Source: Synechococcales cyanobacterium (GTDB lineage Bacteria; Cyanobacteriota; Cyanobacteriia; Leptolyngbyales; Leptolyngbyaceae). Taken from it: 48,488 nucleotides of DNA. Where the stretch lies: NCBI GenBank assembly GCA_043739045.1, contig JAYUEW010000059.1:1-48488 (forward strand), written 5' to 3'. The translations under genes were made by a program, and so were the position numbers. The first letter of the stretch is position 1. Each line of letters begins with the position of its first letter. The notes under the pieces are model-generated. The model did not search any database. It was not told where the DNA came from and worked only from the letters and a program-made list of their open reading frames with translations. Positions 15,266-45,865 of this stretch are shown here, in pieces.

Positions 15266-15310
15266 CTCGGAGAAATACCTTAATTCAGCAATCGCTTTAG
15301 GAGAATACGA

Positions 15311-15928
15311 ATGATTACTCACCCACAGCGGGCGATGGGGACTTTTGAAACCTACGCTTCTGCACAACACGCACTTCATCTTCTTGAAGATTCTGGATTC
15401 ACCATGAGTCAAGTTGCACTCGTTGTAAGAGAAGCTGTCCAGTCGAGTGGTGAGGGTTTTAATCAGGATGATACTCCTAGTAACAAGGCGGTTGCTGAAG
15501 GTATTGTTCAAACAACTCATGTGGAACAAGGCGCAAAAGTAGGGGCCACGACTGGCACGACGATCGGTGGAATCACAGGACTACTGGTTGGATTAGGAAC
15601 ATTAGTGATTCCCGGAGTTGGCCCAATTGTTCTAGCCGGGGCTGCTGCAACTGCGATCGCAACGGCATTTGTTGGTGGCACAGTCGGCGCTGCTACGGGG
15701 GGATTGTTAGGCGGATTGATTGGGGTAGGAATTCCAGAAGAAAACGCAAGGTTTTATGCGGACCATGTCGTGAATGGGGGATATTTAGTTATTGTGGATG
15801 GAACTGAGACGGAAATGCTGAAAATAGAAGAACTATTGGTTGGGAAGGGTATTGGAGAATTACAAATTTACAGGAATGATAATTCTGGAAAGTATGAGCT
15901 ACTCTCTAGGTCCGTTATTCGACCCTAA
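15311..15928 (+). CDS. General-stress membrane protein (YflT-like N-domain plus glycine-zipper segment)
   Basis: 205 aa. GTFETYASAQHALHLLEDSGFTMSQVALV is followed by a Gly-rich hydrophobic stretch (GGITGLLVGLGTLVIPGVGPIVLAGAAATA...GGLLGGLIGVGIPEE) and a C-terminal YLVIV repeat of the N-domain. Confidence 0.6.
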   Translation: MITHPQRAMGTFETYASAQHALHLLEDSGFTMSQVALVVREAVQSSGEGFNQDDTPSNKAVAEGIVQTTHVEQGAKVGATTGTTIGGITGLLVGLGTLVIPGVGPIVLAGAAATAIATAFVGGTVGAATGGLLGGLIGVGIPEENARFYADHVVNGGYLVIVDGTETEMLKIEELLVGKGIGELQIYRNDNSGKYELLSRSVIRP

Positions 15929-16260
15929 AGCCTATTGATCTACTATGAGCTTTAACTGGTTGCTTATTTACAGTCAAGCAAGCAGACAAATAATCGAAGC
16001 AATAAAACATATTGATACTTTTTGATACTTTTGTAAAAGTTGTATACTCCCATACCTAGTAAAAACAGGTAAAGATTTATGGCTAGATTATGTTAATCCG
16101 ATCGTGAGGAACGAGATTTAAAATGGGTTAATACGGTTTTTGCGCCTCAAATTAGATAGAATGATGGCGAGTTACAATACTCATCAAATTCTCATAATTG
16201 AAGGCTTTGGTTTTCAATCTAGCAATTCCAGTCCTTGATTCTAAAGGATTAAATAAAGGC

Positions 16261-16743
16261 ATGGGTATGTTCTCAAAAATTCTAGTAGCGATCGATGACT
16301 CGGCATTCAGTCGGTCTGTTTTTGAACAAGCACTGACACTCGCGAAACTCCATCAATCTCGGCTGATGGTCCTTCATGTTCTAGTGGTCGTCGATAATCT
16401 CTATCCGGGTGATCCCTACATTGGGATCACCCAAGTTGCAATGGAAGCTTATTGGGAGCGCTGGCAAAATCAGCAGCAACAAGGAATTAATCGGTTGAAA
16501 GCCCTAGAAGCCGAAGCGATCGCCGCTGGGGTTGAAATGGAATTTAGCCAAAGTGTGGGAGATCCCAGCAAGATGATTTGTGAATTAGCTGAGACTTGGG
16601 GAAGTGATTTGATCGTAGTGGGACGGCGGGGAGTCAGCGGGATCAGGGAGTTTTTTGGAGGGAGTGTCAGCAACAATGTTCTCCACCATGCGCCATGTAA
16701 TGTCTTAACGTTTCAAAATCAGCAGGTGACGGCGAAACAATAA
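16261..16743 (+). CDS. Universal stress protein (UspA family)
   Basis: ILVAIDDS, LHV and DLIVVGRRG.SG....GSVSNNVLHHAPCNVL are present. I place the start at the ATG at 16261 rather than the TTG at 16198. Confidence 0.85.
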   Translation: MGMFSKILVAIDDSAFSRSVFEQALTLAKLHQSRLMVLHVLVVVDNLYPGDPYIGITQVAMEAYWERWQNQQQQGINRLKALEAEAIAAGVEMEFSQSVGDPSKMICELAETWGSDLIVVGRRGVSGIREFFGGSVSNNVLHHAPCNVLTFQNQQVTAKQ

Positions 16744-16838
16744 GCGGCAGCGGCACTTTCAATCAGTGGTACGAGAGAATGAATTTTGTATTGTTTGGTA
16801 CATTGTTTAATTGACTTTAGGAAAGGAAATAACACTCC

Positions 16839-19274
16839 ATGACTATCATTTCAGAGCAGTCTACTTCAGAATTTTCAATCAGTGCCTACGGGAACGCCCG
16901 ATCGACGATTCAAGGAACTCCCCTCAGCCCAGAAGAACTCCGCAAAATCCATGCCTTCTGGTGCGCTTGTAACTACCTTGCGGTCGGAATGATCTACCTG
17001 CGGGACAATCCTCTACTAAAAGAACCGCTGAAATCTGAACATGTTAAAAATCGTCTCCTCGGGCATTGGGGCACTAGCCCTGGTTTAAGTTTTATCTATA
17101 CGCATTGCAATCGCCTGATCAAGAAATATGATTTAGACATGATCTACTTAGCCGGACCAGGACATGGCGCACCCGGCGTTCTGGCCCCCGTTTATTTAGA
17201 AGGAACCTATTCAGAAGTCTTCTCCGATAAAAGTGAAGATACAGACGGGGTACTCAAGTTTTTTAAACAGTTCTCTTTTCCGGGTGGAATCGGCAGCCAC
17301 TGTACCCCGGAAACCCCCGGATCGATTCATGAAGGGGGGGAGCTAGGCTACAGCCTTTCCCATGCTTACGGCACTGTTTTTGATAATCCAGACTTGATTA
17401 GTGTGGTGATGGTCGGGGATGGTGAATCGGAGACGGGACCATTGGCGACGGCTTGGCATTCTAATAAGTTTATCAATCCGGCGCGTGATGGTGCAGTGCT
17501 ACCCATTCTGCATTTGAATGGATATAAAATTAACAACCCCACCGTTCTGTCTCGCGTGAGTCATGAAGAACTCGAAGATCTATTTAAGGGCTATGGGTAT
17601 CAACCCTATTTTGTCGAAGGTAGTGATCCGGAAACAATGCATCAGGCAATCGCAGCCACATTAGAACATTGCATTCAAGAGATCCATCAAATTCAACGGG
17701 ATGCCCGTAGTGGCGAAGAGGTAAAACGATCGCGATTTCCGATGATTGTATTACGCACTCCTAAGGGTTGGACAGGGCCGAAGCAAGTCGATGGGCATCA
17801 AGTAGAAGGAACGTGGCGATCGCATCAAGTGCCCTTGACAAAGATTCAGGAGAATCCGGCCCATCTGCAACAGCTTGAAGCTTGGCTGAGAAGCTACAAA
17901 CCGGAAGAACTCTTTGGGCCGACTGGGAAACTTATTCCTGAACTTAAAGACCTCGCACCCATGGGAAACCGCCGTATGAGTGCTAATCCCCATGCTAATG
18001 GCGGAAAATTGCGACGAGCGTTAAAGATGCCAGATTTTCGTGACTATGGCATTGAGGTGAGCAAGCCGGGACAACAGGAAGCGGAGAATACCAAACCCTT
18101 GGGTCAGTTTCTTGCGGGCATCATGAAGCAGAATATGACCAACTTTCGAGTTTTTGGTCCGGATGAAACGACTTCTAATAAATTGAACGCGATTTACGAA
18201 GTGAGTCAAAAGTTCTGGATTGAAGAATACTTACCAGAAGATGAGGATGGCGGGGAACTCTCCAGAGATGGGCGAGTTATGGAAATGCTGAGTGAGCATA
18301 CGTTAGAAGGCTGGCTGGAAGGGTATTTGCTGACGGGTCGGCATGGCTTTTTCTCAACCTATGAAGCATTTGTGCATGTGATTGATTCAATGTTTAATCA
18401 ACATGCGAAATGGTTAGAAAGTTGTCGGAGTTTGTCGTGGCGTGAAGACATTTCATCACTCAATTTACTGATTACTTCTACTGTTTGGCGACAGGATCAC
18501 AATGGTTTTACCCATCAAGATCCGGGTTTTCTTGACTTAGTTGCAAATAAGAGTCCCTCTGTGACTCGGATTTATTTACCGCCAGACGTGAATTGTCTAT
18601 TGTCGGTCGCTGATCATTGCTTAAGGAGCAGTAACTATATTAACGTTATTGTCTGTGACAAACAGCTTCATTTGCAATTTATGGACATGGCTAGTGCAAT
18701 TGAACATTGTACAAAAGGAATTGGGATTTGGGATTGGGCGAGTAATGACCAAGGGGTTGAGCCAGACGTGGTGATGGCAACCGCCGGCGATGTCCCCACT
18801 CAAGAAGCATTAGCCGCAACCGCATTGCTCCGATCGGAATTTCCTGATCTTAAGATCAGATTTGTGAATGTAGTTGATTTGTATAAACTACAACCCGATA
18901 GTGAACATCCCCATGGGTTGAACGACCGTGATTTTGATAGTTTATTTACAATAGATAAGCCAATCATCTTTAATTTCCATGGCTATCCCTGGTTAATTCA
19001 TCGTCTTGCCTATCGCCGAACTAATCATCACAACCTGCATGTTCGCGGTTACAAAGAAAAAGGAAGTATCAATACTCCACTAGAATTAGCAATCAATAAC
19101 AATATCGATCGCTTTAGTCTGGCAATGGATGTAATTAATCGGGTTCCAAAATTGCAGGCGATCGGTGCCCATGCTAAGGAGAAGTTTAAAAATAAACAAA
19201 TTGAATGTCGTCAGTATGCCTATGAGCATGGGACTGATTTGCCGGATGTAATTAATTGGAGATGGGATTCTTAG
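16839..19274 (+). CDS. xfp: Xylulose-5-phosphate/fructose-6-phosphate phosphoketolase
   Basis: 811 aa. It has the hallmark [35 protein letters not shown] and HGYPWLIH motifs. Confidence 0.93.
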
Positions 19275-30552: not shown

Positions 30553-30581
30553 CTTTGGACTTCTGTGTGTTCCGCAGTTAA
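30553..30581. repeat. Left copy of a perfect 29-bp direct repeat (putative attL core)
   Basis: CTTTGGACTTCTGTGTGTTCCGCAGTTAA is identical to 45837-45865. The 13 bp to the left are partly similar (8/13). Confidence 0.85.
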
Positions 30582-31565: not shown

Positions 31566-32885
31566 TTAACCTGTTAGTCCCACTCTGTACTGGTTTGTGG
31601 TAGGAGCTACTGCAAAAGTGAACGTAGTAGTATTCGCGGTTGAGAATGCCACGGACGGGACCACAGAATTAAATGGGCTAGCTGCTTGAACACATACCCA
31701 ATTGGGGACAGCATTATTTAGGTTGTGCGTAACCGTAATGACGGTACTAGCTCCATCCCCAATCAATTGCGCAAATTTACGTGCGACAACAGCCGTATTA
31801 ATTGCAATGTCATCAGCATTGACGGTGATGCCAATCCCCGCCCCAGCATTTAAGACATTACCTGTCTTGGTTAGACCTAACCCCGCTGTAATTTGACCCG
31901 CGCCCGATGTCTGAATGAAAGTTAGTGCAGTTGTTCCTAAAACGATCGGGTTTGGAGTCGTTAGCGTGTAGCCATTGGATATGTTGTTGACGGAACCTTC
32001 CGATACGAAAACAAACATTCCGGGCTTGACTTCAGCCGTGGTATCAGAACTAGTGGCGCGAGTTAACGGAATTGCGGCCCCGTTAAAAACATACAGGCCA
32101 TTTTCCGCCGCCGTAGTCTGACCGATTAAGAGTATTTGATTTCCATTAACCAGGGTTACACCGTCAATCGCCGTACCGGGTGTTGCGATCGCAATGTTTC
32201 CCGTAGCAACGACTCGCGCTTCTCCTTTGTTGTTTCCCGTGGAAATCAAAGCGTCAGCGTAGTCTTTATTTACTGCGTCAGACCCAAGTGTGGGAGTTGC
32301 AACTGCTGTTATTCTTTGGTTGTTTAGTGAGACTGCGCTAGTTGGAGATGCTAATTGGTCTAGGCGAGATGCACGAACCTGTGTATCAAAATCGCTGATC
32401 GAGCTACTGGGTTGTGTTCCTGTATGGTTGGCTCGTGTCAGATAAAATAGTGCGGCCTGACTGTTTAGGGTTGTGGCATTTGAGGCCGTACCCGTGAGGT
32501 TCCCTGTTACAGTCCCAACTGCAATATTCCCACTAGCATCTCGCTGTACAAGGGCGTTTGGGGTGTTCGCGGCTGTAGACGCACCGAGTTTAATGAAATC
32601 CGAAATGGACATTGACCCCGCTAAACTTCCACTAGCAGGAGAAATGCTAATTGTGGGAGTTGTCCCACCAGTGGAGACGAGTGGGGCTGTAACAGCGACA
32701 GACACTACGGCACTAGTTGTAAAGTATTCCCAAGATACGCCGTTAAAAGACCCGGCTTTAAGAAGCGTAGTGTCAAAATATCTTTGACCACGTACAGGGT
32801 TGGACGGTGGGGCGGCTAAGTTTTGGCTAACAAGATTACGCGCCTCAACCCCCGCGAAGTCTAGATGATCGACGAGAAATGGCAT
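31566..32885 (-). CDS. Phage tail fibre protein
   Basis: 439 aa. It has PSNPVRGQRYFDT, LVQRDASGNIAVGTVTGNLTGTASNATTL, HTGTQPSSSISDFD and LNNQRITAVATPTLGSDAVNKDYAD. It also has IDGVTLVNGNQILLIGQTTAAENGLYVFNG...RATSSD and a C-terminal THNLNN...F.F beta-sandwich. All are motifs recurrent in phage tail fibres. Confidence 0.8.
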   Translation of the reverse strand: MPFLVDHLDFAGVEARNLVSQNLAAPPSNPVRGQRYFDTTLLKAGSFNGVSWEYFTTSAVVSVAVTAPLVSTGGTTPTISISPASGSLAGSMSISDFIKLGASTAANTPNALVQRDASGNIAVGTVTGNLTGTASNATTLNSQAALFYLTRANHTGTQPSSSISDFDTQVRASRLDQLASPTSAVSLNNQRITAVATPTLGSDAVNKDYADALISTGNNKGEARVVATGNIAIATPGTAIDGVTLVNGNQILLIGQTTAAENGLYVFNGAAIPLTRATSSDTTAEVKPGMFVFVSEGSVNNISNGYTLTTPNPIVLGTTALTFIQTSGAGQITAGLGLTKTGNVLNAGAGIGITVNADDIAINTAVVARKFAQLIGDGASTVITVTHNLNNAVPNWVCVQAASPFNSVVPSVAFSTANTTTFTFAVAPTTNQYRVGLTG

Positions 32886-32894
32886 GAGAAAGTC

Positions 32895-33200
32895 CTATAT
32901 ACAGTAAGCGATTCCGGCGAAAACAGAAGCAAAAGTGATGGTTGATTTATTTAGTCCATCGCTCAAAATAGAACCGTCAACCTTCATTCCATTGGTTGAA
33001 AATGTTGTAATTGATACGGGTTTATTTAAGTTATGGTTTATCGTCCATACGGTAGACGGGGCGGTTTGATCGTGAATATAAAAAGAGGCTTTGTTATTCA
33101 GATCTTGTCTAAGCTCATTTTTTGCAGTAGCTAGAGTATCCGCGATCGTCTGTTTCATAGCCCGGATAGTTTCACTGGGGACAGAGTTGAATACAGGCAT
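32895..33200 (-). CDS. Small structural-module protein with a tail-fibre-type beta-sandwich motif
   Basis: 101 aa. STVWTINHNLNKPVSITTFSTNG...STITFAS repeats the motif at the C-terminus of the 439-aa fibre (ITVTHNLNNAVPNWVCV...TTTFTFA). Confidence 0.5.
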   Translation of the reverse strand: MPVFNSVPSETIRAMKQTIADTLATAKNELRQDLNNKASFYIHDQTAPSTVWTINHNLNKPVSITTFSTNGMKVDGSILSDGLNKSTITFASVFAGIAYCI

Positions 33201-33203
33201 AAG

Positions 33204-33887
33204 TCAAGTCTGTGCATATTCGACAATTTGTAATGTCGTGGGGCTGAACGAGTCTGAAACCATCCATATATTTCCAATATCACCGCCATCTGAAATCCAT
33301 TGCCCACCGGGATACAGAGTTTCAGGGGCGTTATTTTTGGATATGTTGGGTTCAAACCCGATATAGATAGTTGAGCCTGATGAGTTGTACATTGTCGCAG
33401 AGCTACGATCGCGCCGCGATTCAAGAATCTGTACGGGAGTTGGCGAGGGATTGTATGTATAAAACCGACGTATTCGGCCTCGTATAAACTCCCCTGTATC
33501 TTCCTCGGGGCCGATATAACTCCACAAATCCAACTCAAAAGACGGGAACCACTTAGGAGGCGAGATCTTTAGCCGATACTCTCCTAAATCTTCTAAAAAA
33601 ATCAGCTTAGTGTCATTCAGGGTGAGACGTTCGGGCTTTATTAGAGCTTCTGAGAAATGGCTGTTAGAGCATTGCAGAAGCGGCCTTAGCAATCCCCCAT
33701 ATTTCCAGGTCGGAGAACCTGATAGAGAGGTCGTTTTAGCCGCCAGAATACGCCTATCAAGCAATAAAGGGACAACCTGTTCAGGAATAGCCTTCTGTAA
33801 GCTATAAATCATTCCAGCCGACAACCTGAAGGACCATAACGGAATCCAGTGTTGAGGATTACTAAGCTCTAATAAAAGCCGTCCCAT
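33204..33887 (-). CDS. Hypothetical structural-module protein
   Basis: 227-aa ORF, tightly packed (a 3-nt gap to each of its two neighbours). I recognise no family. Confidence 0.5.
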   Translation of the reverse strand: MGRLLLELSNPQHWIPLWSFRLSAGMIYSLQKAIPEQVVPLLLDRRILAAKTTSLSGSPTWKYGGLLRPLLQCSNSHFSEALIKPERLTLNDTKLIFLEDLGEYRLKISPPKWFPSFELDLWSYIGPEEDTGEFIRGRIRRFYTYNPSPTPVQILESRRDRSSATMYNSSGSTIYIGFEPNISKNNAPETLYPGGQWISDGGDIGNIWMVSDSFSPTTLQIVEYAQT

Positions 33888-34817: not shown

Positions 34818-37256
34818 CTAAGCCGCTCCATCTTTAATCCCCCTAAAATCGACTGACCATACAGGTGTAAGGTCCTCATTCCCTTTCAGGAAGTAACGAG
34901 CCTCAACAGGATGCAGGGTTATTTCTGCAATCTTTTTCCCTCCTCTTAAACCAGGCTCAGGAACAACAGAATTCTTATATTCGGGTTCTAATCCTTGAAT
35001 GATTTTCGTCATTGCGTCCTTAGCATCTTTCACGGATTTAGCATTAAGCGTTATTTTTGAACCATCCTTGAATTCTAAAATGCATTGATATTGACCCTTA
35101 TTAAGGATTGGGAAGTCTGGCTTTTTAGTTGTTTTTTCATTCTTTCCCCAATGTGGAATAGTGATTGAGTATTTAGCAGATTTATACTTACCTTTGTCGT
35201 CTTTTTCTGCATACAGAACTACCAGCTTTGACATGTTTGCCCATTTAGCGGGCATCCAATCAGGGAGCACTAATAAAGGCTCTTTTTGCTCACATTGCAA
35301 CGCCAAAATATCAGCCTCATTCTCAAGCATCATTTTCCACGCAGCGGAAGACCCTGCAAGCACTGATACTGATACCTCTCCGAATACTATTTTGCCGTCT
35401 TTATCCCTAGAGCATCCGGTGAACTGCTTCACTTTGATAGTCTCTGGCCTAGTTTGGTTTCCGGTCCGCTTTGCACACGGATCGGCATCCTTGCACGGGT
35501 CAGTGCCGGGGATTGGTTGAGGCTGTGGTTGAGGCTGTGGGGCGGGGACGCCTCCACCCGATGGATCAAAAAACGGTTTATCTCTTTCCCTTGGGTCTGT
35601 TTTTGGATCGCTTCCTGGATTAATGCCCGGTTTTGGGCTTGGTGCCCCTGTTGCTATGGGGTCGTACCTAATAATGGTCTTTGAACCCGCTGCACTGCCG
35701 CTTGACGATCCACCCGGCGATCCACCCGGCGATCCACCCGGCTTGAAACCAGGCGATCGATCGGGTTCGGGTTGTTGCTCCCTTTTTGGTTTTATCTCGT
35801 TCTCCGGCTTCAATTCAGGCCGTGGGGCACGATCGCCACCCGGTGACGGCATAAGGCCGCCGAATGGGTTTCCGTTGGGGGTAGGGTTTCCGTCCGGTCC
35901 GGGTGATGGTGATGGATCTCTACCCGGCGCTGGCCTATTGTTAGGGTCAAGTCCAGGCGAGGGTGGGGCTGATGGGTCTGTTAGATTTCCAGGGGCGTTG
36001 CGTGGTCCTAATCCAGGATCGGGGCCGCCGTCTGGGACAAATTTTACTCCTGCAACATCAGCTCCATCGCTTTTATCCTCATATCCAGAATGAACCTGGA
36101 TCCAATCGCTGTACGGCTCTTTAAATTGCCAAACATAAAAACTTACACCAGGGAGGAACGTAGGCTCTAATACTCCTAGTTTCCAAATTCTGTCGGATGT
36201 GCCGATGTCGGCTTGCGGGAATGAATTCTCACCCTGGATTTGATTCCAGGACCACAGCCCCGGCGTTCCAGGCGCATAAATAGGTGCGAAAGGGTTGTCG
36301 GGTTCGGTATTCGGTCTATTCGGATCTCTGAATGGGGCATTGGGGTCCGGGGCCGGCTCACCCTTTTTTCTGCGTTTGAATGGGTCGTCTGCCAGGGGGT
36401 CTTGAAATTTTGGGCCGCCTGCCCATTCGGGAAGTAATCCCCTCAGCGCCTTTCCTGGATCTTTTGCAAACTCAGGAGACAGAATAATAGGCAAGAGCGC
36501 ACCCCCGATCGCACCAAGCGCTCCTGCACCCGCACCTCCGCCCCTCATCGCGGGTGCCCGGTTTGGACTGAATGGGGCTGGTCTAGTAGGGGTCCCAGAC
36601 GGTGCCGATGTCGGAGGGTTTCCCCTCGCTGCTTGTCCCGATGATGTGCCCCCACTACCCCATGGGGAGTTAGACATTGGGCGATTATTTTCGATTACGG
36701 GTGAAGATTTAGACGGGGAACCTCCACTAGGGCGAGAACTTCCGCCCCCGTTTCCTGAGTTGCTGCCCCCTGTACCGGATGGGGTGTTCCCTCTAGAGGA
36801 TTGTCCTGAGATTGTGTCCGCCGATCGCGGGTTGCTCTGGCCAGTCGGTGCGCTTGAACTGCCAGAAGAAGGCTGTCTAGCCATTTCTTGATATCTTCGT
36901 TCTGTTTGAATTCTGGCCTCTTGTTGCTCCGCCGCGATTCTTCTTGATTCTTGTCTCACTCTGGCCTCACGATCGGCTTCAGCTTGCCTAGCGCGTTCTG
37001 GAGCGTCAGCCTCATATCGCTGTCTAGCCGCCTCAGCCTCATTACGTTGGTCCTCAAGCCGTGAAGCCGCTTTTCTTGCGTCAGCTAAATCCGAAATTCT
37101 TTTGTTTTCAGCCTGAAGAGAATCCCAATTCCTATCAATTCGAGTGCGGTTTTGAGCATCAAGAAAACGGGCTTGCTCCGGTGTTATGTTCCCAGCTCTA
37201 ACCTCATTAGTTAGACGCTCATGGTATTGGACTGGATCGACAACGGTATAAGGCAT
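34818..37256 (-). CDS. Large Pro/Gly/Ser-rich protein with an N-terminal charged coiled coil and an internal TM segment
   Basis: I place the start at ATG 37254-37256 (MPYTVVDP), because the ORF-track start at 37277 lies inside a terminator hairpin. An R/E/A/Q coiled coil is followed by an S/G/P low-complexity region and a TM helix (GAGALGAIGGALLPIIL). Long P-rich linkers follow (PQPQPQPQP, GGSPGGSPGGSSSGS), then a ~230-aa globular C-terminal domain. Confidence 0.65.
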   Translation of the reverse strand: MPYTVVDPVQYHERLTNEVRAGNITPEQARFLDAQNRTRIDRNWDSLQAENKRISDLADARKAASRLEDQRNEAEAARQRYEADAPERARQAEADREARVRQESRRIAAEQQEARIQTERRYQEMARQPSSGSSSAPTGQSNPRSADTISGQSSRGNTPSGTGGSNSGNGGGSSRPSGGSPSKSSPVIENNRPMSNSPWGSGGTSSGQAARGNPPTSAPSGTPTRPAPFSPNRAPAMRGGGAGAGALGAIGGALLPIILSPEFAKDPGKALRGLLPEWAGGPKFQDPLADDPFKRRKKGEPAPDPNAPFRDPNRPNTEPDNPFAPIYAPGTPGLWSWNQIQGENSFPQADIGTSDRIWKLGVLEPTFLPGVSFYVWQFKEPYSDWIQVHSGYEDKSDGADVAGVKFVPDGGPDPGLGPRNAPGNLTDPSAPPSPGLDPNNRPAPGRDPSPSPGPDGNPTPNGNPFGGLMPSPGGDRAPRPELKPENEIKPKREQQPEPDRSPGFKPGGSPGGSPGGSSSGSAAGSKTIIRYDPIATGAPSPKPGINPGSDPKTDPRERDKPFFDPSGGGVPAPQPQPQPQPIPGTDPCKDADPCAKRTGNQTRPETIKVKQFTGCSRDKDGKIVFGEVSVSVLAGSSAAWKMMLENEADILALQCEQKEPLLVLPDWMPAKWANMSKLVVLYAEKDDKGKYKSAKYSITIPHWGKNEKTTKKPDFPILNKGQYQCILEFKDGSKITLNAKSVKDAKDAMTKIIQGLEPEYKNSVVPEPGLRGGKKIAEITLHPVEARYFLKGNEDLTPVWSVDFRGIKDGAA

Positions 37257-37290
37257 GAAAAATAAAAAAGCACCCAAATACGGGTGCTGT
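37257..37290 (-). terminator. Rho-independent terminator between the small 100-aa gene and the 812-aa gene
   Basis: On the minus strand the hairpin AGCACCC-GTATTT-GGGTGCT (37269-37288) is followed by TTTTTTATTTTTC and then directly by the ATG of the next gene. Confidence 0.7.
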
Positions 37291-37610: not shown

Positions 37611-37678
37611 GATGAGTCTCAAATGGGACAACTCAAGTATACAGCCTGGTATAAAATATCACCTGCACTTTTCCCAGA

Positions 37679-37945
37679 TCAGGACCGATCGCGCTCTAGT
37701 CTGTATATCGCTCTTTTCCATCGCTGTTCCTCAGTGTCTGCGAACTCTAAACCAACCATCCTGTGTGCAAGGTCAATATCACCCGCACACATTCGATATA
37801 GGAGTTCTCTCGTTTCCTGACTAGGACCATATTCAGTCCTGGTTGTCTGTGTGCGCGGCGGATGAACTTTTGCTCTACTTGACTGCAACAAGGTCCTAGC
37901 CAGGACGTAAAAGAGGAAGCAACACAGGAAAAAGAGAGAGGCCAT
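37679..37945 (-). CDS. Small membrane-anchored protein
   Basis: 88 aa. It has an N-terminal hydrophobic helix (MASLFFLCCFLFYVLARTLL), then a basic region and a helical C-terminus. Confidence 0.4.
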   Translation of the reverse strand: MASLFFLCCFLFYVLARTLLQSSRAKVHPPRTQTTRTEYGPSQETRELLYRMCAGDIDLAHRMVGLEFADTEEQRWKRAIYRLERDRS

Positions 37946-38143
37946 ATTCTTAGATTTTCTAATGATTCTAGTATTATTCCCAGTCCAAGAACTAACCAGA
38001 ACTTCTGTCCAAAAACGCAGAAGTCCAAACCAAACAACAGGCTTTGTGACGATCGCCGCCGCTTATTGCGAGTGATGAATGAAGGGTTTCAAATATCGCT
38101 TTTTGGTGATGTAGTCCGTTTTTAGTCCAGTGGGTCATTCTCA

Positions 38144-38190
38144 ATAAAAAAACCCCGATCGCCATGAGTTTCGATCGGGGTTTTGTTTTC
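38144..38190 (-). terminator. Bidirectional rho-independent terminator after the ATPase module
   Basis: Stem CCCCGATCG (38153-38161) pairs with CGATCGGGG (38172-38180). An A-run lies upstream and TTTTGTTTT downstream, so it is readable on both strands. Confidence 0.7.
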
Positions 38191-38195
38191 AATTT

Positions 38196-38299
38196 GGTAA
38201 CGGTAATCGGTAACGGTAATCGGTAACGGTAACAGAGGCAGTAACGGCGTTACTGATACCTTTTTTTGCTGTTACTGCGTTACGTTGCTGGCCTGTTAC
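38196..38299. repeat. Array of GTAAC / GTTAC pentamers in convergent orientation (iteron-like protein-binding array)
   Basis: GGTAACGGTAATC x2 plus GGTAACGGTAACA (38196-38234) are followed by the palindrome GTAACGGCGTTAC (38241-38253). GTTAC then occurs at 38271, 38279 and 38295. Confidence 0.85.
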
Positions 38300-38323: not shown

Positions 38324-39955
38324 TTAGGAAATAAGGCTTTGTAGCACATCCCAAATCTCATCCCGATTATCCCTTAAATACTCAGATTTCCTATCATTCT
38401 TAGCCCGATTCATGAAGTCGTTCTTGGTGATGCCGCCTGCGCTTTCACGCCTAGCAATCGACCACTGATAAGCAATCATGAGCGCTTCCCGTTTATTAAT
38501 ATCCGGGACCGATTCAATGAGGCCGATCGCCGGGTCTGCGAACGTTTCCAGGTAAGCACGGGTGAAAACTTCGGTTGCTGTTGCTGTGCCCCATTGGACC
38601 GACTCACCCGCAGGAACCGGAATCTCTCCCCATATTTTTAGCTTGGGGGTTGAGGCCGATCGCTTAGCCAGTTCGTCCGGCGGAACCGTGGGAATTGGTA
38701 GCCAAGATTGAGAATCGTGGGAGTAGGCGATCGTTTGGTATTGGTTGAACAGTGGGAAATCTGCACCAATCTTAGGAGCCTCAAAACTTCCATTCCCGCC
38801 GTTAGCAAATTTGAGGTTTTCCCGGCTTGCGAGGGTGTAATTTTTCAAACTCTTTAAGGCAGAACTTGAAACCCCGGTGCCATCGACCGTAGCGAGGGGT
38901 GTCATGACCCAAACAAATCGATCGACTGACTGACGCATTGAAGCTTCATGAACCAAGAAATCCATTAACCAGACTGAGAATGAGCGATTATCGTTGTTAA
39001 ATAGCTCGTCATCCAATTCAGACATTTTGACGGGTTTCAAACGAGATAGAGTACTAGATAATTCATCCAGGATGAACAGGATGGGAGCCGCTGGAGAGCT
39101 GGGCAGGCTCTGCCAGTGGCGAATCATTGAATAGAGGGATTGTGCCGCGCGGGTGGGATTTTGGTCTAGGTCAGGATTGAAGAATTGGTCGCAGGTCTCC
39201 CAATACCAATGCTCTTTTGGATCTTGTTTGGGCGTGTAGCCGTAAAGGATTCCGGTTGGATATTTCTGCTTGTAGGCAATCATGGCGATCGTAATCATGA
39301 TGCCTTTCCCTGTTCGCGGCGGCGCTGCGACATAGGACGATCGCACTGGATTGACCATGGAATCAATAGCCGTTGGAATCTTGCAAGTTCCGCCCGCGCT
39401 TGTGGGTGCGACTGCCTGTAATGCAATAGTTCCAGGCAATGCAGCCGATTCATGGGGAAGGTCTTTGAGTTGCTGAATCTCTTCCATGAATGCCGAAATC
39501 GTCCGACGCTTGGGCTTTTTGTTCATGGCCAGACAGAGCCTGCGAGCGGCGGCGGTGATGGTCTGCCCGTCTTGGTAGGCTTGCAAGACTTCAGAGACAG
39601 CCGCGTCAGGTCCAACGATTTCGGCATAACGGACAAGTTCAGGCTCTTTCAACGCATGGGCCAGAACTCCCACATCTTTGATATATTCGGCATCCTTGCC
39701 CTTTTGAATGGCTCCATCTACAGCGTTGTAGATGAAATAAAGTCCGGCGATGGCACCAATTATAGGGATTCCTGAAATTGAAGACATTCCGAATCCAATG
39801 GCTAAGCCTGACACTAGGGGAAAGGCAGAACTTGACACCACGCCGTTTAAGGCTTCATCGGCAATGTCTTCGATTTGGTCTAGTTTCTCGTTGGATAGTT
39901 TGGAATATTTCTGTAATAGCCGGGGAATACGATCGGTGGAGATGCTTGATAACAT
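38324..39955 (-). CDS. Membrane-anchored P-loop NTPase resembling the FtsK/HerA and type IV coupling protein (VirD4/TraG) families
   Basis: 543 aa. Hydrophobic Gly-rich helices lie at about residues 43-78. Walker A is AAPPRTGKG (about residues 210-218; compare APTRSGKG of VirD4/TraG-type proteins) and Walker B is ILFILDELS. Confidence 0.65.
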   Translation of the reverse strand: MLSSISTDRIPRLLQKYSKLSNEKLDQIEDIADEALNGVVSSSAFPLVSGLAIGFGMSSISGIPIIGAIAGLYFIYNAVDGAIQKGKDAEYIKDVGVLAHALKEPELVRYAEIVGPDAAVSEVLQAYQDGQTITAAARRLCLAMNKKPKRRTISAFMEEIQQLKDLPHESAALPGTIALQAVAPTSAGGTCKIPTAIDSMVNPVRSSYVAAPPRTGKGIMITIAMIAYKQKYPTGILYGYTPKQDPKEHWYWETCDQFFNPDLDQNPTRAAQSLYSMIRHWQSLPSSPAAPILFILDELSSTLSRLKPVKMSELDDELFNNDNRSFSVWLMDFLVHEASMRQSVDRFVWVMTPLATVDGTGVSSSALKSLKNYTLASRENLKFANGGNGSFEAPKIGADFPLFNQYQTIAYSHDSQSWLPIPTVPPDELAKRSASTPKLKIWGEIPVPAGESVQWGTATATEVFTRAYLETFADPAIGLIESVPDINKREALMIAYQWSIARRESAGGITKNDFMNRAKNDRKSEYLRDNRDEIWDVLQSLIS

Positions 39956-40638
39956 TAGGCTTCCTCATTGCGGTAGAAGAGCCATTGACCGACGACGATG
40001 ACCAGGAGCAACATGACTTCAAAGCTGAAAAGCATAATGGCCAAGTCACGGGCGTTGTCTCCATTTATCCAGATTGGATTCATTGATTTCATCCAAAATC
40101 CGAAATCACTCCAATTCTTCCAAACTGGATAGGCTTTCAGTCCTACGGCTAGGTCAAAGGCATAGGCCGCTAGGCTTAGAGCGGCGGCATACCTCATAAA
40201 GAAGAATGGAATTCTACTGATTCGCTTGACGGCGCGGCGGGTGTCTGAATTTTTACTGTCACTGTGTTTGTCCAGGTCATCAGTCAGGGCGATCGATGTT
40301 CTAACGGCGTTCTTTTGCGCTTTGGCATCCATAGAAATGACAATCCAGAGGCATTCCAGAATCTGAACAGGTGCCCAAATTAGGATGGCTCCGATCGTGG
40401 CGACTCCCATTGATAAACGGTTAAACAATGGGCCTATTAAGGGAATATCTAAGACCCATGAAGCATTCCCCCCAGCGCTTGATAGCAGCATTGCATAGGG
40501 CTTGATATTGATTAGGGCGATCGTAAATAGGCCAAACAACAAACCCAGAAATAAGACCCAGATGAGCGCTTGGAGAATCCAAGAATCTTCGACATCACGG
40601 GCGGCTCGGCTATTTTTGAAGCGATTGAATACAGTCAT
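39955..40638 (-). CDS. Polytopic integral membrane protein
   Basis: 227 aa with about 5 predicted TM helices. Its stop overlaps the start of the ATPase gene, suggesting translational coupling. Confidence 0.6.
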   Translation of the reverse strand: MTVFNRFKNSRAARDVEDSWILQALIWVLFLGLLFGLFTIALINIKPYAMLLSSAGGNASWVLDIPLIGPLFNRLSMGVATIGAILIWAPVQILECLWIVISMDAKAQKNAVRTSIALTDDLDKHSDSKNSDTRRAVKRISRIPFFFMRYAAALSLAAYAFDLAVGLKAYPVWKNWSDFGFWMKSMNPIWINGDNARDLAIMLFSFEVMLLLVIVVGQWLFYRNEEA

Positions 40639-40639
40639 C

Positions 40640-41161
40640 TTATGAACCTACTTGTGGACGGTTTGCGGTGGGGTAGCGTTTCATCATGGTGGTGATGCGC
40701 TTTTGGTCTGGAGTGTTCAATAGGTCGGTGACGACGGCGTAGGGTTTGGCTTGTTTGGCCAAAGTTCCGACATTTCCGTAGGCATCACAGACCGTTGTTC
40801 CGGCTGGCAGATAGTCGGTCTGATTGGGTTTAAGATTCCTGTTTTTGTTCCAACGCATCCAGAAATCTCCGCTTAAAACGCCTACACCCTCGGTTAGGGG
40901 CTGATAGATGTTTTCACCAGGTTTCATATAAAAGACCCCTTCACAGCCTGCGTCGAATCGCTCATTAGCCAGGGCGATCGATTGCTTCTGTAAGGCGTGA
41001 TTCTGTTGCTTTGATTCAAGTCGTAATTGCATAGGGTCGGGGTTGAATGCCCCTCGTTGCAGGCCGATCGTCAATCCACCCAAGATAGCGAGGCAACTGA
41101 TACAGCCGATCACTGTTCCCTTGGGGTCGTCAGCTAGTTGCTCCAAAATTAGATTCATCAT
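40640..41161 (-). CDS. Membrane-anchored (single N-terminal TM) exported-domain protein
   Basis: 173 aa with an N-terminal TM helix (GTVIGCISCLAILGGLTIGL). It overlaps the upstream gene by 4 nt (ATGA). Confidence 0.55.
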   Translation of the reverse strand: MMNLILEQLADDPKGTVIGCISCLAILGGLTIGLQRGAFNPDPMQLRLESKQQNHALQKQSIALANERFDAGCEGVFYMKPGENIYQPLTEGVGVLSGDFWMRWNKNRNLKPNQTDYLPAGTTVCDAYGNVGTLAKQAKPYAVVTDLLNTPDQKRITTMMKRYPTANRPQVGS

Positions 41162-41526
41162 GCTGTTATCTCTGCTTCGATTGTGGACATTAAGGCGAGG
41201 TTGTTTGAGTGGGGTAGTTCTGCCCCATCGCCGAAAAAACTTAGGTCTATTGCTCCAATTCGTTGCCTAGCTTTGATGTAGGAGCTTTGGAGTCCCAAGC
41301 GAACAATGCTTTCAGCGCGAGTTGCAAAGTCGTCTGAGAGTTCGTCGATTTTGGCTTGAAGGTCTGCTAGTTCCTTTTCCTGGCGGTCTCTTGCTGCTTT
41401 CAGGAGAGTTAGGCGATCGGTGGTAGGTTCGATCGGCTCAGTCGGTTCTAGGGACCGTTCTTCGGTATTTTTTAAGGCCATGGCTTTGGCGGCTCCGGGG
41501 TTAAAGCGTTTTGAACTGGTAGGCAT
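41158..41526 (-). CDS. Coiled-coil protein
   Basis: The start is taken at the ATG (MPTSSKRF), which is preceded by a strong GGGAGGA Shine-Dalgarno sequence. The central helix is LTLLKAARDRQEKELADLQAKIDELSDDF. Confidence 0.55.
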   Translation of the reverse strand: MPTSSKRFNPGAAKAMALKNTEERSLEPTEPIEPTTDRLTLLKAARDRQEKELADLQAKIDELSDDFATRAESIVRLGLQSSYIKARQRIGAIDLSFFGDGAELPHSNNLALMSTIEAEITA

Positions 41527-41560
41527 TTTATTGGTCCTCCCGATGGGTTTAAACAATGAC

Positions 41561-41836
41561 CTAAATAGCCGCGAAGAACTCTGATGATTCGTCTCTCAGT
41601 GCATCCATGGCCGCATCTTCAGGGTCGGGCATGTCATCAAGAGTTTCCCGGATTGATTGCTTGACGGCGGAAAGCTCCAACATCTCCAGAAGGGAATCAG
41701 CCTGATCGATCGCCATCTTTGAAGCTGAATCAAACTGGAGTGCAGGGAAATCAGGGTTCGCATACATTCCACCCAAAATTAGGGCGGCGAAATGTTCTCG
41801 CTTGGTCATGCCGATCTGGTTTGGTGTGCTGTTCAT
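41561..41836 (-). CDS. Small phage-type protein (REHFAA..L.GM motif)
   Basis: The ORF is open to 41965, and I prefer the ATG at 41836 (MNSTPNQIGMTKREHFAALILGGMYANPD). The R(D/E)(Y/H)FAA...G motif recurs in small prophage proteins. This is the first gene of the minus-strand arm. Confidence 0.45.
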   Translation of the reverse strand: MNSTPNQIGMTKREHFAALILGGMYANPDFPALQFDSASKMAIDQADSLLEMLELSAVKQSIRETLDDMPDPEDAAMDALRDESSEFFAAI

Positions 41837-42167: not shown

Positions 42168-42310
42168 TCAAAGTTCTGAACTTCGACTCAATCAATCTAG
42201 CATCAAACCAACGCAAAAATCCGAACTTTGATTATGCCAATAACTTATGAATAAAGGCTTTAATGATAGTACTTATTAATCAAAGTTCTGAACTATAAAT
42301 CAAAGTTCTG
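42168..42310. promoter_or_regulatory. Divergent control region with four operator-like repeats (CAAAGTTC core)
   Basis: TCAAAGTTCTGAAC lies at 42168-42181 and an inverted copy, CCGAACTTTGATT, at 42221-42233. AATCAAAGTTCTGAAC lies at 42278-42293 and AATCAAAGTTCTG at 42298-42310. The region sits between the divergent arms, ending 41 bp before the RHH gene. Confidence 0.7.
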
Positions 42311-42351: not shown

Positions 42352-42612
42352 ATGATGGCCACAATTGTTCGGATGCCAACAAAATTAAAGAAAATTACGG
42401 TGGTTCTAGATCCTGAACTGGAACAGGCTCTAGAGAGATATGCGATGCGCTGTCAGCGGAGTTTGTCGCAGAGTGCGTCTATCCTGCTTGAACAGTCCTT
42501 GATGGTGACTGGTGATTTGAAGTGCGCCATTGATAGAAGAGAGAAGCGCGGCGGTAAGAGACAAGGTTCTGGACGCAAGCCGGAAGACAATATCTCTGAA
42601 GAATCGGCGTAA
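42352..42612 (+). CDS. Ribbon-helix-helix (CopG/Arc-like) transcriptional regulator
   Basis: 86 aa. KKITVVLDPELEQALERYAMRCQRSLSQSASILLEQSL has the beta-strand, helix, helix RHH pattern, followed by a basic tail. Confidence 0.7.
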   Translation: MMATIVRMPTKLKKITVVLDPELEQALERYAMRCQRSLSQSASILLEQSLMVTGDLKCAIDRREKRGGKRQGSGRKPEDNISEESA

Positions 42613-42916: not shown

Positions 42917-45034
42917 ATGAACATGGCAGGCAGCAACAACGGGACAGCACAAACGCTACCCAAATTTGACATTCTCAAGCATTTAGACAAACTCACCACA
43001 GACGGCGGCAGTACCAGCAGTAAAAACGAGATTTCCTACCATTGCCCGGTCTGTGGTTCTGGTAACTTCAAAATTCACGTAGACGGCAAGAGCAGAGGCA
43101 AATATCAGACATGGGGCTGTGACTGTGCCAAATCCGAGAGAGGCAAGCAGGCAATTAAAGACAAACTGGCCCCGCTGACATGGGACAAGCCTTTGAGAGA
43201 AAAGGGCACCGCCACTTATACCTATCAAGCCCTGTATGAAGGAAGGCCGATCGACATCGCTCAGGTTAGGAGGGCCGACGACGGTGACGGGAAGCGCAGG
43301 TTCAACCAGTGGCATAAAGACGGGAATAGATGGGTTTCAGGCGTACCGGATGAAGTGAAGGCCCTAATTCACCTCTATCAAATTTTTAACGAGATAAATC
43401 AGAGTGCGATCGCTAACGGTCAAACCATCCTGATTGTTGAGGGGGAAGGGAAGGTTGATTTACTTTTGTCGTTAGGCATTGCAGCAACCTGTTCGATCGG
43501 CGGCGGTGGAAAGTGGACACAGTACGGCTATCCCAACTACTTGCAGGATTTGGACGGCGCGGCGGTTGTGATTTGTCCCGATCGGGACCAGCCAGGAATC
43601 AAACATGCTGACGAAGTAGCCCTAGACTTCCCGGACGCAAAATGGCTATATCCGGCACCAACGTCCTATCTATGGGAACGCCTAATCCAACCAAACAAAG
43701 GATTCGACATAAAAGATTGGATCAACGACGACGGCGCGACAAAGGCCGACATATTGAACGCGATCGGCGATCGGCGCGAACTCATCCTCTCAATACCGAA
43801 GCCATCGGAGCCACCGAAATTACAACTTGGGCCACCAATGGGGACGATCGCCGCGAGTAATTCAGACGTTCCCCCACCCGTAGCGAGTCGTAAGGCAAAT
43901 CGCGGCATGACGACCCTACAGCAAGACGCTGAGATGATAGAAAACGAGGTTGGGCACTTGCTGACCTTTGACACAGCTACCCAAAACTTCTACCTAGAAG
44001 GCAAACGGCTAACCCTTGGGCGAGAACGGCTCCTCCTTTCCACTAAATACGGGCTGCCCATAAAAGCGGGGAAGGAGGACGTAATGGACATTTGTGTGCA
44101 ACTCGCCCTAGGAAACAGCTTCAACTCAGTAAGGGACTACCTGAACAAATGCCGGAATACGACCGGTATAAAACTACTTGATATCTGTCAAAAGTTTTTC
44201 AACAATCCAGACCCATTACAAGCTGTATTCCTCAAAAAGTGGTTAATTTCGGCAGTCGCAAGGGCATATGACCCAGGGTGTCAAGCGGATGAGGTCATGA
44301 TTCTACAAGGAGGACAAGGTCAGCGAAAATCCAGCTTCTTCCTTGAACTCGCCCCCCAGAAGGAATGGGTCAACGGGAATGGTTTACAAGGCGGGAAAAT
44401 TAATGATGAAGAGATTCGGAAAGCTCAAAGAACTTGGTTAATCGAAGTTCCAGAGATAGATAAGACCTTCAAGAAGTCGTGCTCAAGTGAGCTAAAAGCA
44501 TTCATGACACAGCGTGGAGATTGGCTTAGGCAGTTGTACGAAAAGATGCCCGAACTCTATCTACGCAACTCTGTAATGGGGGGAACCACGAACGAACCCG
44601 AACTTTTCACAGACGACACAGGAAATAGGCGTTTCACCGTGGTGAAGGTATGCGTAGACCTTCTCGATAGCTCATGGCTAAGGGCGAATCGTGACAGCAT
44701 ATGGAGTGAGGCTCGGGATGCGTATCTTGCTGGAGAAATATGGCACCTCACCCCCGAGGAAAAACTTCTCCATGCACGGCAGAACATGCAATGGAAAATC
44801 GAACACCCATGGCACGGCACGATCGAGCATTACCTCAGGTATGAGACAGAGGTTACTATCCCGGAAATCCTTCATGTCGTTATCAAGTTGAGCCTCTCAG
44901 AACTTAAAGGAAAGTCAGAACAGATGCAGGTTTCAGGAATTTTAAAAGCTCTGGGATTCACAAAGACGAATCGGCGTGGTTCCTACATGGAGGCAAATTC
45001 ACCAATTTGGATAAGGACTGCTGATAATTTCTAA
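42917..45034 (+). CDS. Bifunctional primase / VirE-D5-type P-loop helicase replication protein
   Basis: 705 aa. An N-terminal Zn finger (CPVCGSGNFKIH...WGCDC) is followed by a TOPRIM domain (ILIVEGEGKVD, ICPDRDQPG). The C-terminal VirE-like NTPase has Walker A (QGGQGQRKSSFF) and Walker B (WLIEVPEID). Confidence 0.8.
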   Translation: MNMAGSNNGTAQTLPKFDILKHLDKLTTDGGSTSSKNEISYHCPVCGSGNFKIHVDGKSRGKYQTWGCDCAKSERGKQAIKDKLAPLTWDKPLREKGTATYTYQALYEGRPIDIAQVRRADDGDGKRRFNQWHKDGNRWVSGVPDEVKALIHLYQIFNEINQSAIANGQTILIVEGEGKVDLLLSLGIAATCSIGGGGKWTQYGYPNYLQDLDGAAVVICPDRDQPGIKHADEVALDFPDAKWLYPAPTSYLWERLIQPNKGFDIKDWINDDGATKADILNAIGDRRELILSIPKPSEPPKLQLGPPMGTIAASNSDVPPPVASRKANRGMTTLQQDAEMIENEVGHLLTFDTATQNFYLEGKRLTLGRERLLLSTKYGLPIKAGKEDVMDICVQLALGNSFNSVRDYLNKCRNTTGIKLLDICQKFFNNPDPLQAVFLKKWLISAVARAYDPGCQADEVMILQGGQGQRKSSFFLELAPQKEWVNGNGLQGGKINDEEIRKAQRTWLIEVPEIDKTFKKSCSSELKAFMTQRGDWLRQLYEKMPELYLRNSVMGGTTNEPELFTDDTGNRRFTVVKVCVDLLDSSWLRANRDSIWSEARDAYLAGEIWHLTPEEKLLHARQNMQWKIEHPWHGTIEHYLRYETEVTIPEILHVVIKLSLSELKGKSEQMQVSGILKALGFTKTNRRGSYMEANSPIWIRTADNF

Positions 45035-45036
45035 AA

Positions 45037-45266
45037 AGGTGTGTAAGGTGTGTGTTTATATATTTATTTAAGAAAAAAGGTATGTATAGAGAGGGTTTCA
45101 GCCTTTACACACCTTGCACACACCCCATACACACCTCAATGTAGGTGTGTGATTACACACCTTTAGCCACACACACACCTCTATACACACCTTTTAGCAG
45201 AGGTGTGTAAGACCTAAATCCAATCTGTGCAAGGGTTTCAGAGATTTCATACACACCCGCACACCT
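45037..45266. repeat. Iteron field (AGGTGTGT / ACACACCT), candidate origin of replication
   Basis: Exact AGGTGTGT occurs at 45037, 45046, 45143 and 45201. Exact ACACACCT occurs at 45107, 45129, 45155, 45173 and 45185. Variants lie at 45118, 45251 and 45260. A flanking AGGGTTTCAG repeat lies at 45092 and 45232, and an AT-rich stretch at 45055-45090. Confidence 0.8.
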
Positions 45267-45307
45267 CTCACAGCTTTTTCACAGCAAACTATATCTGAGG
45301 TTTCGTT

Positions 45308-45836: not shown

Positions 45837-45865
45837 CTTTGGACTTCTGTGTGTTCCGCAGTTAA
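45837..45865. repeat. Right copy of the perfect 29-bp direct repeat (putative attR core)
   Basis: CTTTGGACTTCTGTGTGTTCCGCAGTTAA is identical to 30553-30581. Confidence 0.85.

Follow-up and report, generated by a model that had tools for sequence, protein, structure and literature searches.

What does a cyanobacterial mobile element do with a membrane-anchored ATPase that has no family name and is followed by a short array of DNA repeats? This question is raised by a five-gene operon on a 48,488-bp contig (JAYUEW010000059.1) from the genome of a Synechococcales cyanobacterium (GenBank assembly GCA_043739045.1) that is 82% complete; "the window" here means this whole contig. We propose, at a probability of about one half, that the operon encodes a site-addressed translocase for double-stranded DNA, comparable to TraB and its clt site in Streptomyces, that would serve the transfer of the mobile element on which it lies. 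We put this reading first because the operon and its relatives combine a membrane-anchored FtsK-type motor, a variable C-terminal tail, and an adjacent cognate array, on elements with replication (Rep) and integrase genes and without a recognised relaxase or type IV secretion system (T4SS).

The ATPase and its two membrane partners

The operon lies on the minus strand, and its five open reading frames (ORFs) have the sizes and order that the original prediction gave them: p91 (41561 to 41836; 91 amino acids), cc122 (41158 to 41526; 122 amino acids), fam1 (40640 to 41161; 173 amino acids), fam2 (39955 to 40638; 227 amino acids), and the ATPase gene (38324 to 39955; 543 amino acids). The tight junctions between the last four genes were likewise borne out: cc122 overlaps fam1 by 4 nucleotides (nt) (41158 to 41161), a 1-nt gap (position 40639) separates fam1 from fam2, and fam2 overlaps the ATPase gene by 1 nt (position 39955). 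The ATG of p91 is residue 44 of a 134-amino-acid ORF with a TTG start, and that of cc122 is residue 11 of a 132-amino-acid ORF; the spacing between the two genes is 34 nt if cc122 begins at its ATG and 4 nt if it begins at TTG. An intrinsic-terminator-like hairpin followed by a T run (38146 to 38187, minus strand) ends the operon. It was recognised as an inverted repeat and by reading the sequence; the terminator scan did not list it, as its loop of 10 is above the limit of that scan. Beyond the terminator, approximately 500 bp (37632 to 38145) separate the operon from a gene for a 107-amino-acid protein and hold weak ORFs only, among them one of 88 amino acids with a hydrophobic N terminus (37679 to 37945).

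The locus had been described as a five-gene module of small membrane proteins, and both parts of that description hold for some of the genes only. A Kyte-Doolittle scan found one transmembrane helix in the 173-amino-acid Fam1 protein and at least three (three to five) in the polytopic Fam2 protein, and none in p91 or cc122. We scored the neighbouring genes by profile searches and tblastn at 41 loci (identifiers beginning with L), comprising the window, 10 loci from Synechococcales metagenome-assembled genomes, 2 plasmid records, 2 metagenome contigs, and 26 cyanobacterial genome regions, 20 of which were chosen from 137 listed places so as to spread over genera and scores. The expected co-occurrence was found for the last three genes: in 37/41 loci fam2 immediately precedes the ATPase gene, the exceptions being L012, L044 (where only fam1 is present), L051, and L052, and fam1 lies upstream of fam2 in 35 of these 37, the contig ending first in the other 2. 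In contrast, relatives of p91 were seen only in L010 and those of cc122 only in L002, L008, and L010. Because these two genes have relatives in close kin only, we regard the conserved unit as one of three genes, not five. The p91 protein has a weak match to PHROG 2201 (E 2e-4), and cc122, a probable coiled-coil protein, matches only coiled-coil families in Pfam, all below threshold.

Three groups of loci vary this arrangement. In L025, L026, L043, L049, and L050, an extra gene for a single-transmembrane protein of approximately 100 to 136 amino acids stands between fam2 and the ATPase gene; this subgroup has a class of ATPase tail marked by the residues KF and lacks an array in the 200 nt that follow the ATPase gene. 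A subfamily of longer ATPases (L051 and L052, of 650 to 670 amino acids, and about 30 further places, the open frames of the subfamily being 605 to 714 amino acids) matches in the core only and comes without either membrane partner, and in L052 a two-orientation array (GGTCAG, 9 copies) is still present after the ATPase gene. L012, the Leptolyngbya sp. BL0902 plasmid NZ_CP046156.1, encodes a distant ATPase relative of 436 amino acids among very small genes, near a CyRepA1-family Rep gene and upstream of an M23 peptidase gene, with neither fam1 nor fam2 recognisable there.

Neither membrane partner matched a family in Pfam, NCBIfam, PHROGs, or PADLOC. Fam1 is bitopic, with an N-terminal transmembrane helix, a long helix, and a small domain that bears two invariant cysteines (C73 and C125); the position of this pair after the transmembrane helix suggests that the small domain is probably periplasmic. 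A model of Fam1 with a predicted local distance difference test (pLDDT) score of 80 had no counterpart in a fold search, where the top Z (3.1) was owed to the long helix. A search of the ESM Atlas with Fam2 gave a best score of 0.85, which is uninformative, and complex prediction for ATPase residues 1 to 175 with Fam1 and Fam2 gave no answer (score, 0.01).

The third member of the unit is better defined. Both motifs reported for the ATPase are present, Walker A (AAPPRTGKG) within residues 208 to 218 and Walker B (ILFILDELS) at 292 to 298, and in an alignment of 34 relatives R214, G216, K217, D297, and E298 are invariant; no invariant arginine outside the P-loop, as might serve for an arginine finger, was seen in that alignment. 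The glycine-rich hydrophobic part that had been noted at the N terminus is a single stretch beginning near residue 48 in the Kyte-Doolittle scan, and because it is approximately 45 residues long it is probably a hairpin. The chain is thus laid out as a membrane hairpin (approximately residues 45 to 90), a helical linker (100 to 165), an ASCE P-loop core (190 to 440), and a swappable helical C-terminal domain (460 to 543). An AlphaFold 2 model has a mean pLDDT of 72.5, rising to 80 to 93 over residues 190 to 440 and 470 to 543, and the tail is modelled as a confident helical domain (pLDDT, 80 to 91).

Its modelled fold places the protein among ASCE P-loop ATPases, in the FtsK/HerA type. In VIA-align, the core superposes on EccC D2 (Z 13.1), TcpA, the coupling protein of pCW3 (13.1), VirB4 (12.6), FtsK (12.3), HerA (11.9), and the packaging ATPase B204 of STIV2 (11.5), the best rows aligning approximately 190 to 210 residues at a root mean square deviation (rmsd) of 3.4 to 4.2 over model residues 188 to 440 or so; TrwB reached Z 10.6 at an rmsd of 7.1. 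Foldseek searches of the PDB returned RecA/Rad51, Rho, FtsK, and HerA at E values of about 1e-4, and a viral structure library (BFVD) returned A32-like, mavirus, adintovirus, and Sputnik V3 packaging ATPases at E values of about 1e-5 to 1e-4, with TM-scores of 0.47 to 0.50 on the target. The top rows from BFVD, unnamed proteins and a Nodularia phage protein, were distrusted, for they aligned approximately 570 to 615 columns at an rmsd of 28 to 31 Å; a related Nodularia phage record, searched with a profile, gave no match. Beyond the ATPase's own cyanobacterial clusters, the protein-language-model neighbours that bear a family name are DUF87/HerA (0.92) or FtsK_SpoIIIE (0.86 to 0.90), and in one neighbour cluster at 0.86 TrwB_AAD_bind is found in 53% of members.

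By sequence, the ATPase forms a separate family; the predicted membership of the FtsK/HerA superfamily stands at the level of core fold and finds no counterpart in sequence profiles. No family was matched in Pfam (E ≤ 0.1), NCBIfam, PHROG, or PADLOC, and a scan of 89 of the 568 cluster representatives mentioned below gave no above-threshold match to any specific Pfam family, although a few had sub-threshold matches to AAA_22 or ATPase_2. Searches of PDB sequences with the single sequence and with a profile returned nothing relevant, the sole row being a lectin at E 0.14. Common though it is, the family is unnamed in all the libraries searched. The 82 relatives in a word-indexed database are all unnamed as well, and 568 cluster representatives match an ATPase profile at E ≤ 0.001. 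The family was found in 6/401 evenly sampled genomes across the phylum and in 107/389 genomes and 24/68 genera of the cyanobacterial family that holds genome G164.

A repeat array that varies with the C-terminal domain

Between the ATPase gene and the terminator-like hairpin lies an array of 9 GTAAC or GTTAC copies in 103 bp (38197 to 38299), which we propose as a cis-acting, clt-like recognition site. Read in the orientation of the gene, the stop codon is followed by four GTAAC copies, the palindrome AGTAACGCCGTTACT, and then GTTACC and GATTACC repeats; counted by the shorter word, four GTAAC copies precede five GTTAC copies around the palindrome. The window contains 44 GTAAC sites in its 48,488 bp, and 9 of them fall within this array.

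Comparable arrays are widespread in the family. Where at least 120 nt of sequence was available downstream (38 loci), 6-mers in the 200 nt next to the ATPase stop codon, on its downstream side, were compared with shuffled sequence (P ≤ 0.01), and a 6-mer repeated far beyond the shuffles was found in 26/38 loci. In 16/26 arrays, no inverted copy occurs before the last forward copy. The segment after the ATPase gene is, moreover, the strongest two-orientation repeat of the whole locus in 23/38 loci, and in three further loci the strongest repeat window reaches the stop codon or comes after an end that is frameshifted. The motif itself differs among loci, being GTAGGAC in L002, GAGGAC in L001, L007, and L008, TGTAGC in L023, GACAGA in L021 and L033, and GGTGTG in L011.

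The C-terminal stretch of the ATPase, about 75 residues long, differs among loci too, occurring as unrelated variants even where cores are 70 to 76% identical. For all 325 pairs among the 26 array-bearing loci, which include related loci that are not independent, we scored whether the two arrays share an enriched 5-mer. Pairs with similar tails did so in 31/37 cases, versus 39/288 for pairs with dissimilar tails. Where the tails are similar and the cores dissimilar, 12/14 pairs share an enriched 5-mer, whereas only 4/43 pairs with similar cores and dissimilar tails do, mostly through trivial words such as AAAAA. For instance, L010 and L022 have cores only 23 to 30% identical to that of the window, tails that are 53 to 54% identical, and the motif GTAAC; conversely, L001, L002, L007, and L008 have cores 70 to 76% identical, tails that cannot be aligned with that of the window, and the motif GAGGAC or GTAGGAC. 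The motif is also independent of Rep type, as the Rep of the window is nearest to that of L002, yet the motif of L002 differs, and it does not track the small upstream genes. As judged from these sequence comparisons, the array motif follows the swappable C-terminal domain of the ATPase and not its core. The presence of a cognate array next to the ATPase gene argues that the substrate is DNA.

The mobile element and the company of its relatives

The operon is part of an insertion. A perfect 29-bp direct repeat, found by script as an exact 29-mer and read in the sequence, occurs at 30553 to 30581 and again at 45837 to 45865, forming att-like ends. In four genomes of the same genus, which hold a single copy, both flanks abut on that copy (G746, G748, G751, and G749). 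In G746 (contig C411) the left flank runs as far as 10630 and the right flank begins at 10602, and the two flanks overlap by 29 bp in G748 (C7) and G751 (C111) and by 27 bp in G749 (C174). Because the flanks of these empty sites meet on a single repeat copy, the 15.3 kb between the repeats represents an insertion. The same 29 to 31 bp match alone in another congener (G747, C68). The first 29,000 or so bases of the window are ordinary cyanobacterial sequence, with genes for RuvB, MoaA, phosphoketolase, acetate kinase, and Uma2. No transfer RNA gene was found in the window, and Rfam gave no match in the element. Contigs from four DNA sequencing runs are interrupted at the array and at the 29-bp repeats, and none of them joins the two ends of the element or skips it.

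The family's relatives are likewise carried by plasmids and integrative plasmid-like elements. A primase-helicase Rep is a neighbour in the window, L002, L010, L011, L021, and L024, and a tyrosine integrase in L002, L010, L011, L024, and L026. A ParM-like actin (ALP_N) is encoded in the same operon in L011, L022, L023, and L024, and ParA/ParB stand beside the module in L004, L009, and L027. L011 is a complete circular 17.3-kb Scytonema plasmid that PLSDB types as non-mobilizable, as it does all three of its plasmid records with an ATPase relative. In viral collections, 13 pattern matches for the ATPase in IMG/VR yielded none that was confirmed, and 50,697 phage records contained no relative.

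Within the element of the window, plus-strand genes encode a small ribbon-helix-helix-like (RHH-like) protein, a 67-amino-acid protein, and a primase-helicase. The 86-amino-acid RHH-like protein (42352 to 42612) has weak TraY/RHH matches in Pfam (E 1.4e-3) and is divergent from the operon; between the two lie three direct copies of TCAAAGTTCTGA together with inverted copies (42168 to 42310), which are probably operator sites. The 705-amino-acid primase/VapE-type helicase (42917 to 45034; Pfam VapE-like, E 5e-55, and PHROG primase and helicase families) is the element's probable replication protein. Directly after its gene, at 45021 to 45270, is a second two-orientation cluster, of AGGTGTG and CACACCT, with 9 AGGTGT copies in 200 bp; this cluster outranks every other such window in the contig and is a candidate replication origin. 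L045 and L011 have a word similar to AGGTGTG in the arrays adjacent to their ATPase genes.

On the minus strand, the operon is followed, after the gap, by genes for proteins of 107, 819, 195, 66, 227, 101, 439, and 182 amino acids. The 819-amino-acid protein (34818 to 37277) has a charged N-terminal part of 247 residues with a weak TolA match, a transmembrane helix near residue 248, a Pro/Gly-rich stretch of approximately 350 residues, and a C-terminal globular part, a layout resembling TonB, TolA, or VirB10 that may span the envelope. It matched no family and was not beside the ATPase in the other loci examined. The 439-amino-acid protein (31566 to 32885) carries a domain common to phage "head decoration" or "tail fibre" proteins (PHROG 2647, E 1e-87). 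It matched 345 phage records, the best at 46% identity over 59% of the query, and the common domain of approximately 270 residues occurs in phages of Gordonia, Rhodococcus, Mycobacterium, Ralstonia, and Synechococcus. The 101-amino-acid protein encoded next to it (both genes lie within 31566 to 33200) has matches to these PHROG families at their C termini. Neither the 439- nor the 819-amino-acid protein had useful relatives in the PDB. In L021, at 13840 to 17248, a distant copy of the three-gene unit is adjoined by genes for a 666-amino-acid protein with collagen repeats and a GDSL/SGNH hydrolase domain and for a relative of the window's other 227-amino-acid protein (33204 to 33887). A fibre-like module therefore accompanies the ATPase module in two distant elements. 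No att repeats were found around L021. Among the proteins of the window's element, scans with Pfam and other collections recognised no relaxase, VirB4, or type IV coupling protein (T4CP) family and no capsid, portal, or terminase family.

What the motor may move

In the mechanism that we propose, the 543-amino-acid protein would be held in the inner membrane by its N-terminal hairpin, with its FtsK/HerA-type core in the cytoplasm, where it would presumably act as a hexamer. Its small helical C-terminal domain would recognise and bind the short two-orientation motif that lies 3' of its gene, GTAAC in the window. The ATPase would then load at the array and drive the double-stranded DNA of the element through a membrane assembly formed by contact with the polytopic Fam2 and bitopic Fam1 proteins, the disulfide-bearing domain of Fam1 facing the periplasm. 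The outcome would be transfer from cell to cell with neither a relaxase nor a T4SS.

Several known systems resemble parts of this scheme. According to published accounts, the FtsK-like translocase TraB reads the direct 8-bp repeats of clt with its C terminus and cooperates with membrane Spd proteins encoded on the plasmid (PMC4447253, PMC5365140). As portrayed there, TraB/clt shares with the present system a membrane-anchored FtsK-type motor with a C-terminal domain (whose recognition role is here a proposal), short repeats beside the gene, small plasmid-encoded membrane partners, and a home on plasmids of small size or integrative elements that carry genes for Rep and integrase but no recognised relaxase or T4SS. 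It differs in that there is no detectable sequence similarity, the hosts here are diderm cyanobacteria and not actinomycetes, Fam1 and Fam2 are unrelated to any named family, and the arrays here are usually of two orientations around a centre, tail and motif coming in many exchangeable variants. Another point of comparison is TdtA of ICEth1 in Thermus thermophilus, which is described as a HerA-like "DNA pushing" ATPase and for which the cited paper reports neither a detected DNA-binding domain nor a known cis site (PMC5365140). Like the ATPase here, it is an FtsK/HerA-like protein on an integrated element of approximately 14 to 15 kb with flanking direct repeats, and the T4SS-free donation of DNA that the same source ascribes to it is what we propose here (PMC5365140); unlike TdtA, the ATPase here has a variable tail domain, an adjacent array, and two conserved membrane partners. 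FtsK and SpoIIIE, with their KOPS and SRS motifs, share the motor fold (Escherichia coli FtsK motor, Z 12.3 over 209 residues), the N-terminal membrane anchor, and, in idea, a C-terminal domain that reads short polar motifs, as is proposed here. The ATPase of the window is, however, encoded by an element and not a housekeeping protein, and its motifs cluster in one array of about 100 bp instead of being spread chromosome-wide.

A number of results weigh against a TraB-like motor. Sequence-level kinship to FtsK or TraB is absent: the ATPase does not match Pfam FtsK_SpoIIIE, and an hhalign comparison with E. coli FtsK gave a probability of 0.3% and aligned only the P-loops. Rho (Z 12.8) and RecA-type proteins tie with the FtsK-type rows within 1 Z, and therefore the fold settles membership of the ASCE RecA-like class more firmly than it does the precise superfamily. 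No DNA-binding family was recognised in the C-terminal domain, and ten tail variants, together with the window's own tail and linker, matched no Pfam family (best, SgrR_N at E 0.033). No array was found in the first 200 nt of 12/38 loci, which include the whole KF tail class (L025, L026, L043, L044, L046, L049, and L050). Less than 100 bp lies between the array and the DNA coding for the tail, and the two therefore recombine as one block; part of the covariation could reflect linkage and not function, but the retention of GTAAC while tails diverged to approximately 53% identity speaks for the motif being under selection. The window's element yielded no integrase, and tblastn against the window with the integrases of five relatives returned nothing below E 0.4. 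Finally, in these diderm hosts the three genes are accompanied by no conserved component for crossing the outer membrane or the peptidoglycan, and the phage-fibre-like genes in the window's element and in the neighbourhood of L021 fit a virion better than a mating apparatus.

Those fibre-like genes bring up an alternative that we consider unlikely, namely that the ATPase packages or assembles the genome of a non-tailed virus, membrane-containing or pleomorphic, or of a plasmid-virus hybrid. The array would then be a pac site, the small membrane proteins would belong to the virion or its assembly site, and the 439-amino-acid protein would be a host-recognition spike. The widespread phage structural domain of that protein, the 101-amino-acid protein sharing its C-terminal families, and the L021 neighbourhood, where the collagen-repeat/GDSL protein and the relative of the second 227-amino-acid protein adjoin the ATPase module, are all consistent with packaging, as is the broad fold class, which takes in STIV2 B204 and the A32-like, mavirus, adintovirus, and Sputnik V3 ATPases and extends to PRD1 P9, with small membrane proteins nearby. 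To our knowledge, however, the known packaging ATPases of this lineage are about 200 to 250 amino acids long, with neither an N-terminal membrane hairpin nor a site-specific tail domain; the present protein is much longer. The family scans recognised no capsid gene near it, and viral collections gave no confirmed relative. Most relatives keep company with partition genes (ParM-like or ParAB) and not with fibre-like genes, the 17.3-kb Scytonema plasmid included. Those same partition genes would suit a motor that works inside the cell, steered by the oppositely oriented motifs much as KOPS converging on dif steer FtsK, and clearing, segregating, or resolving plasmid copies at closing septa, possibly feeding a tyrosine recombinase. 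Forward copies, a centre, and inverted copies reproduce the polarity of KOPS around dif, and this order is seen in 16 of the 26 arrays; moreover, the module frequently shares its operon with a ParM-like actin or adjoins ParA/ParB, and tyrosine recombinases are close by. We nevertheless hold such a role to be rather improbable, as the window's element keeps the module with no recombinase or partition gene found, the cysteine pair of Fam1 suggests a periplasmic domain for which an intracellular job has no need, and the FtsK of the host would already serve.

Two further readings draw on the best structural rows, and both seem very unlikely to us. EccC and EssC domains head the superposition (Z 12.6 to 13.1), the partners are a bitopic and a polytopic membrane protein, and the upstream genes encode helical proteins of about 100 amino acids, which would fit a type VII-like ATPase secreting those small proteins or the downstream Pro/Gly-rich one. 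EccC and EssC, however, have three tandem FtsK-like ATPase domains, whereas the ATPase here has one; no WXG100, Ecc, or Ess family was recognised, the small upstream genes are not conserved with the three-gene unit, and an array that tracks the tail domain points to a DNA substrate. A coupling protein like VirD4, TraG, or TcpA, serving a T4SS encoded elsewhere in the host, would have the same layout of membrane anchor followed by ATPase. TcpA ties for the best structural match (rmsd 3.4 over 196 residues) and has two N-terminal membrane helices, and TrwB is represented both among the superpositions and in a language-model cluster. The likeness of Walker A to that of coupling proteins, from which this identity had been suggested, did not extend further: no T4CP, FtsK, or Zot family was matched in Pfam at E ≤ 0.1, neither VirB4, a relaxase, nor another T4SS component was recognised alongside the ATPase, and the three PLSDB plasmids with a relative are typed as non-mobilizable. 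Moreover, we know of no T4CP that carries a repeat-specific DNA-recognition tail of its own. Inovirus pI/Zot, named for comparison in the original prediction, has the reverse domain order, the Zot ATPase being N-terminal and followed by the transmembrane segment, whereas here the membrane hairpin comes first. What survives of the membrane-embedded DNA translocation machine foreseen there is a pump-type fold, a membrane anchor, two membrane partners, and an adjacent DNA array; as between packaging and transfer, the genomic context, plasmids with ParM-like or ParAB genes and no relatives found in viral collections, favours transfer, and the fibre-like genes inside the element lend some weight to a viral role.

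The literature searched, which excluded subscription journals, contained no description of this module. If the motor is TraB-like, FtsK-type DNA transfer would extend from actinomycetes to a diderm phylum, the arrays would be the predicted transfer origin for each element, and the natural swaps of tail and motif would amount to a ready-made specificity experiment, possibly with parts for cyanobacterial genetics. A bolder idea, which we advance only tentatively, is that diderm cyanobacteria host an independent form of conjugation, free of relaxase and T4SS, in which an FtsK/HerA-like pump and its two unnamed membrane partners would move the double-stranded DNA of the element, with exchangeable tail/array cassettes as the address and sometimes with phage-like fibres for attachment to cells. 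According to one plasmid survey, 88% of 424 cyanobacterial plasmids are scored as likely immobile by a model based on relaxases and T4SSs (PMC8600333). If cyanobacteria do conjugate in this independent way, it would explain the spread of many of the plasmids that are now scored immobile.

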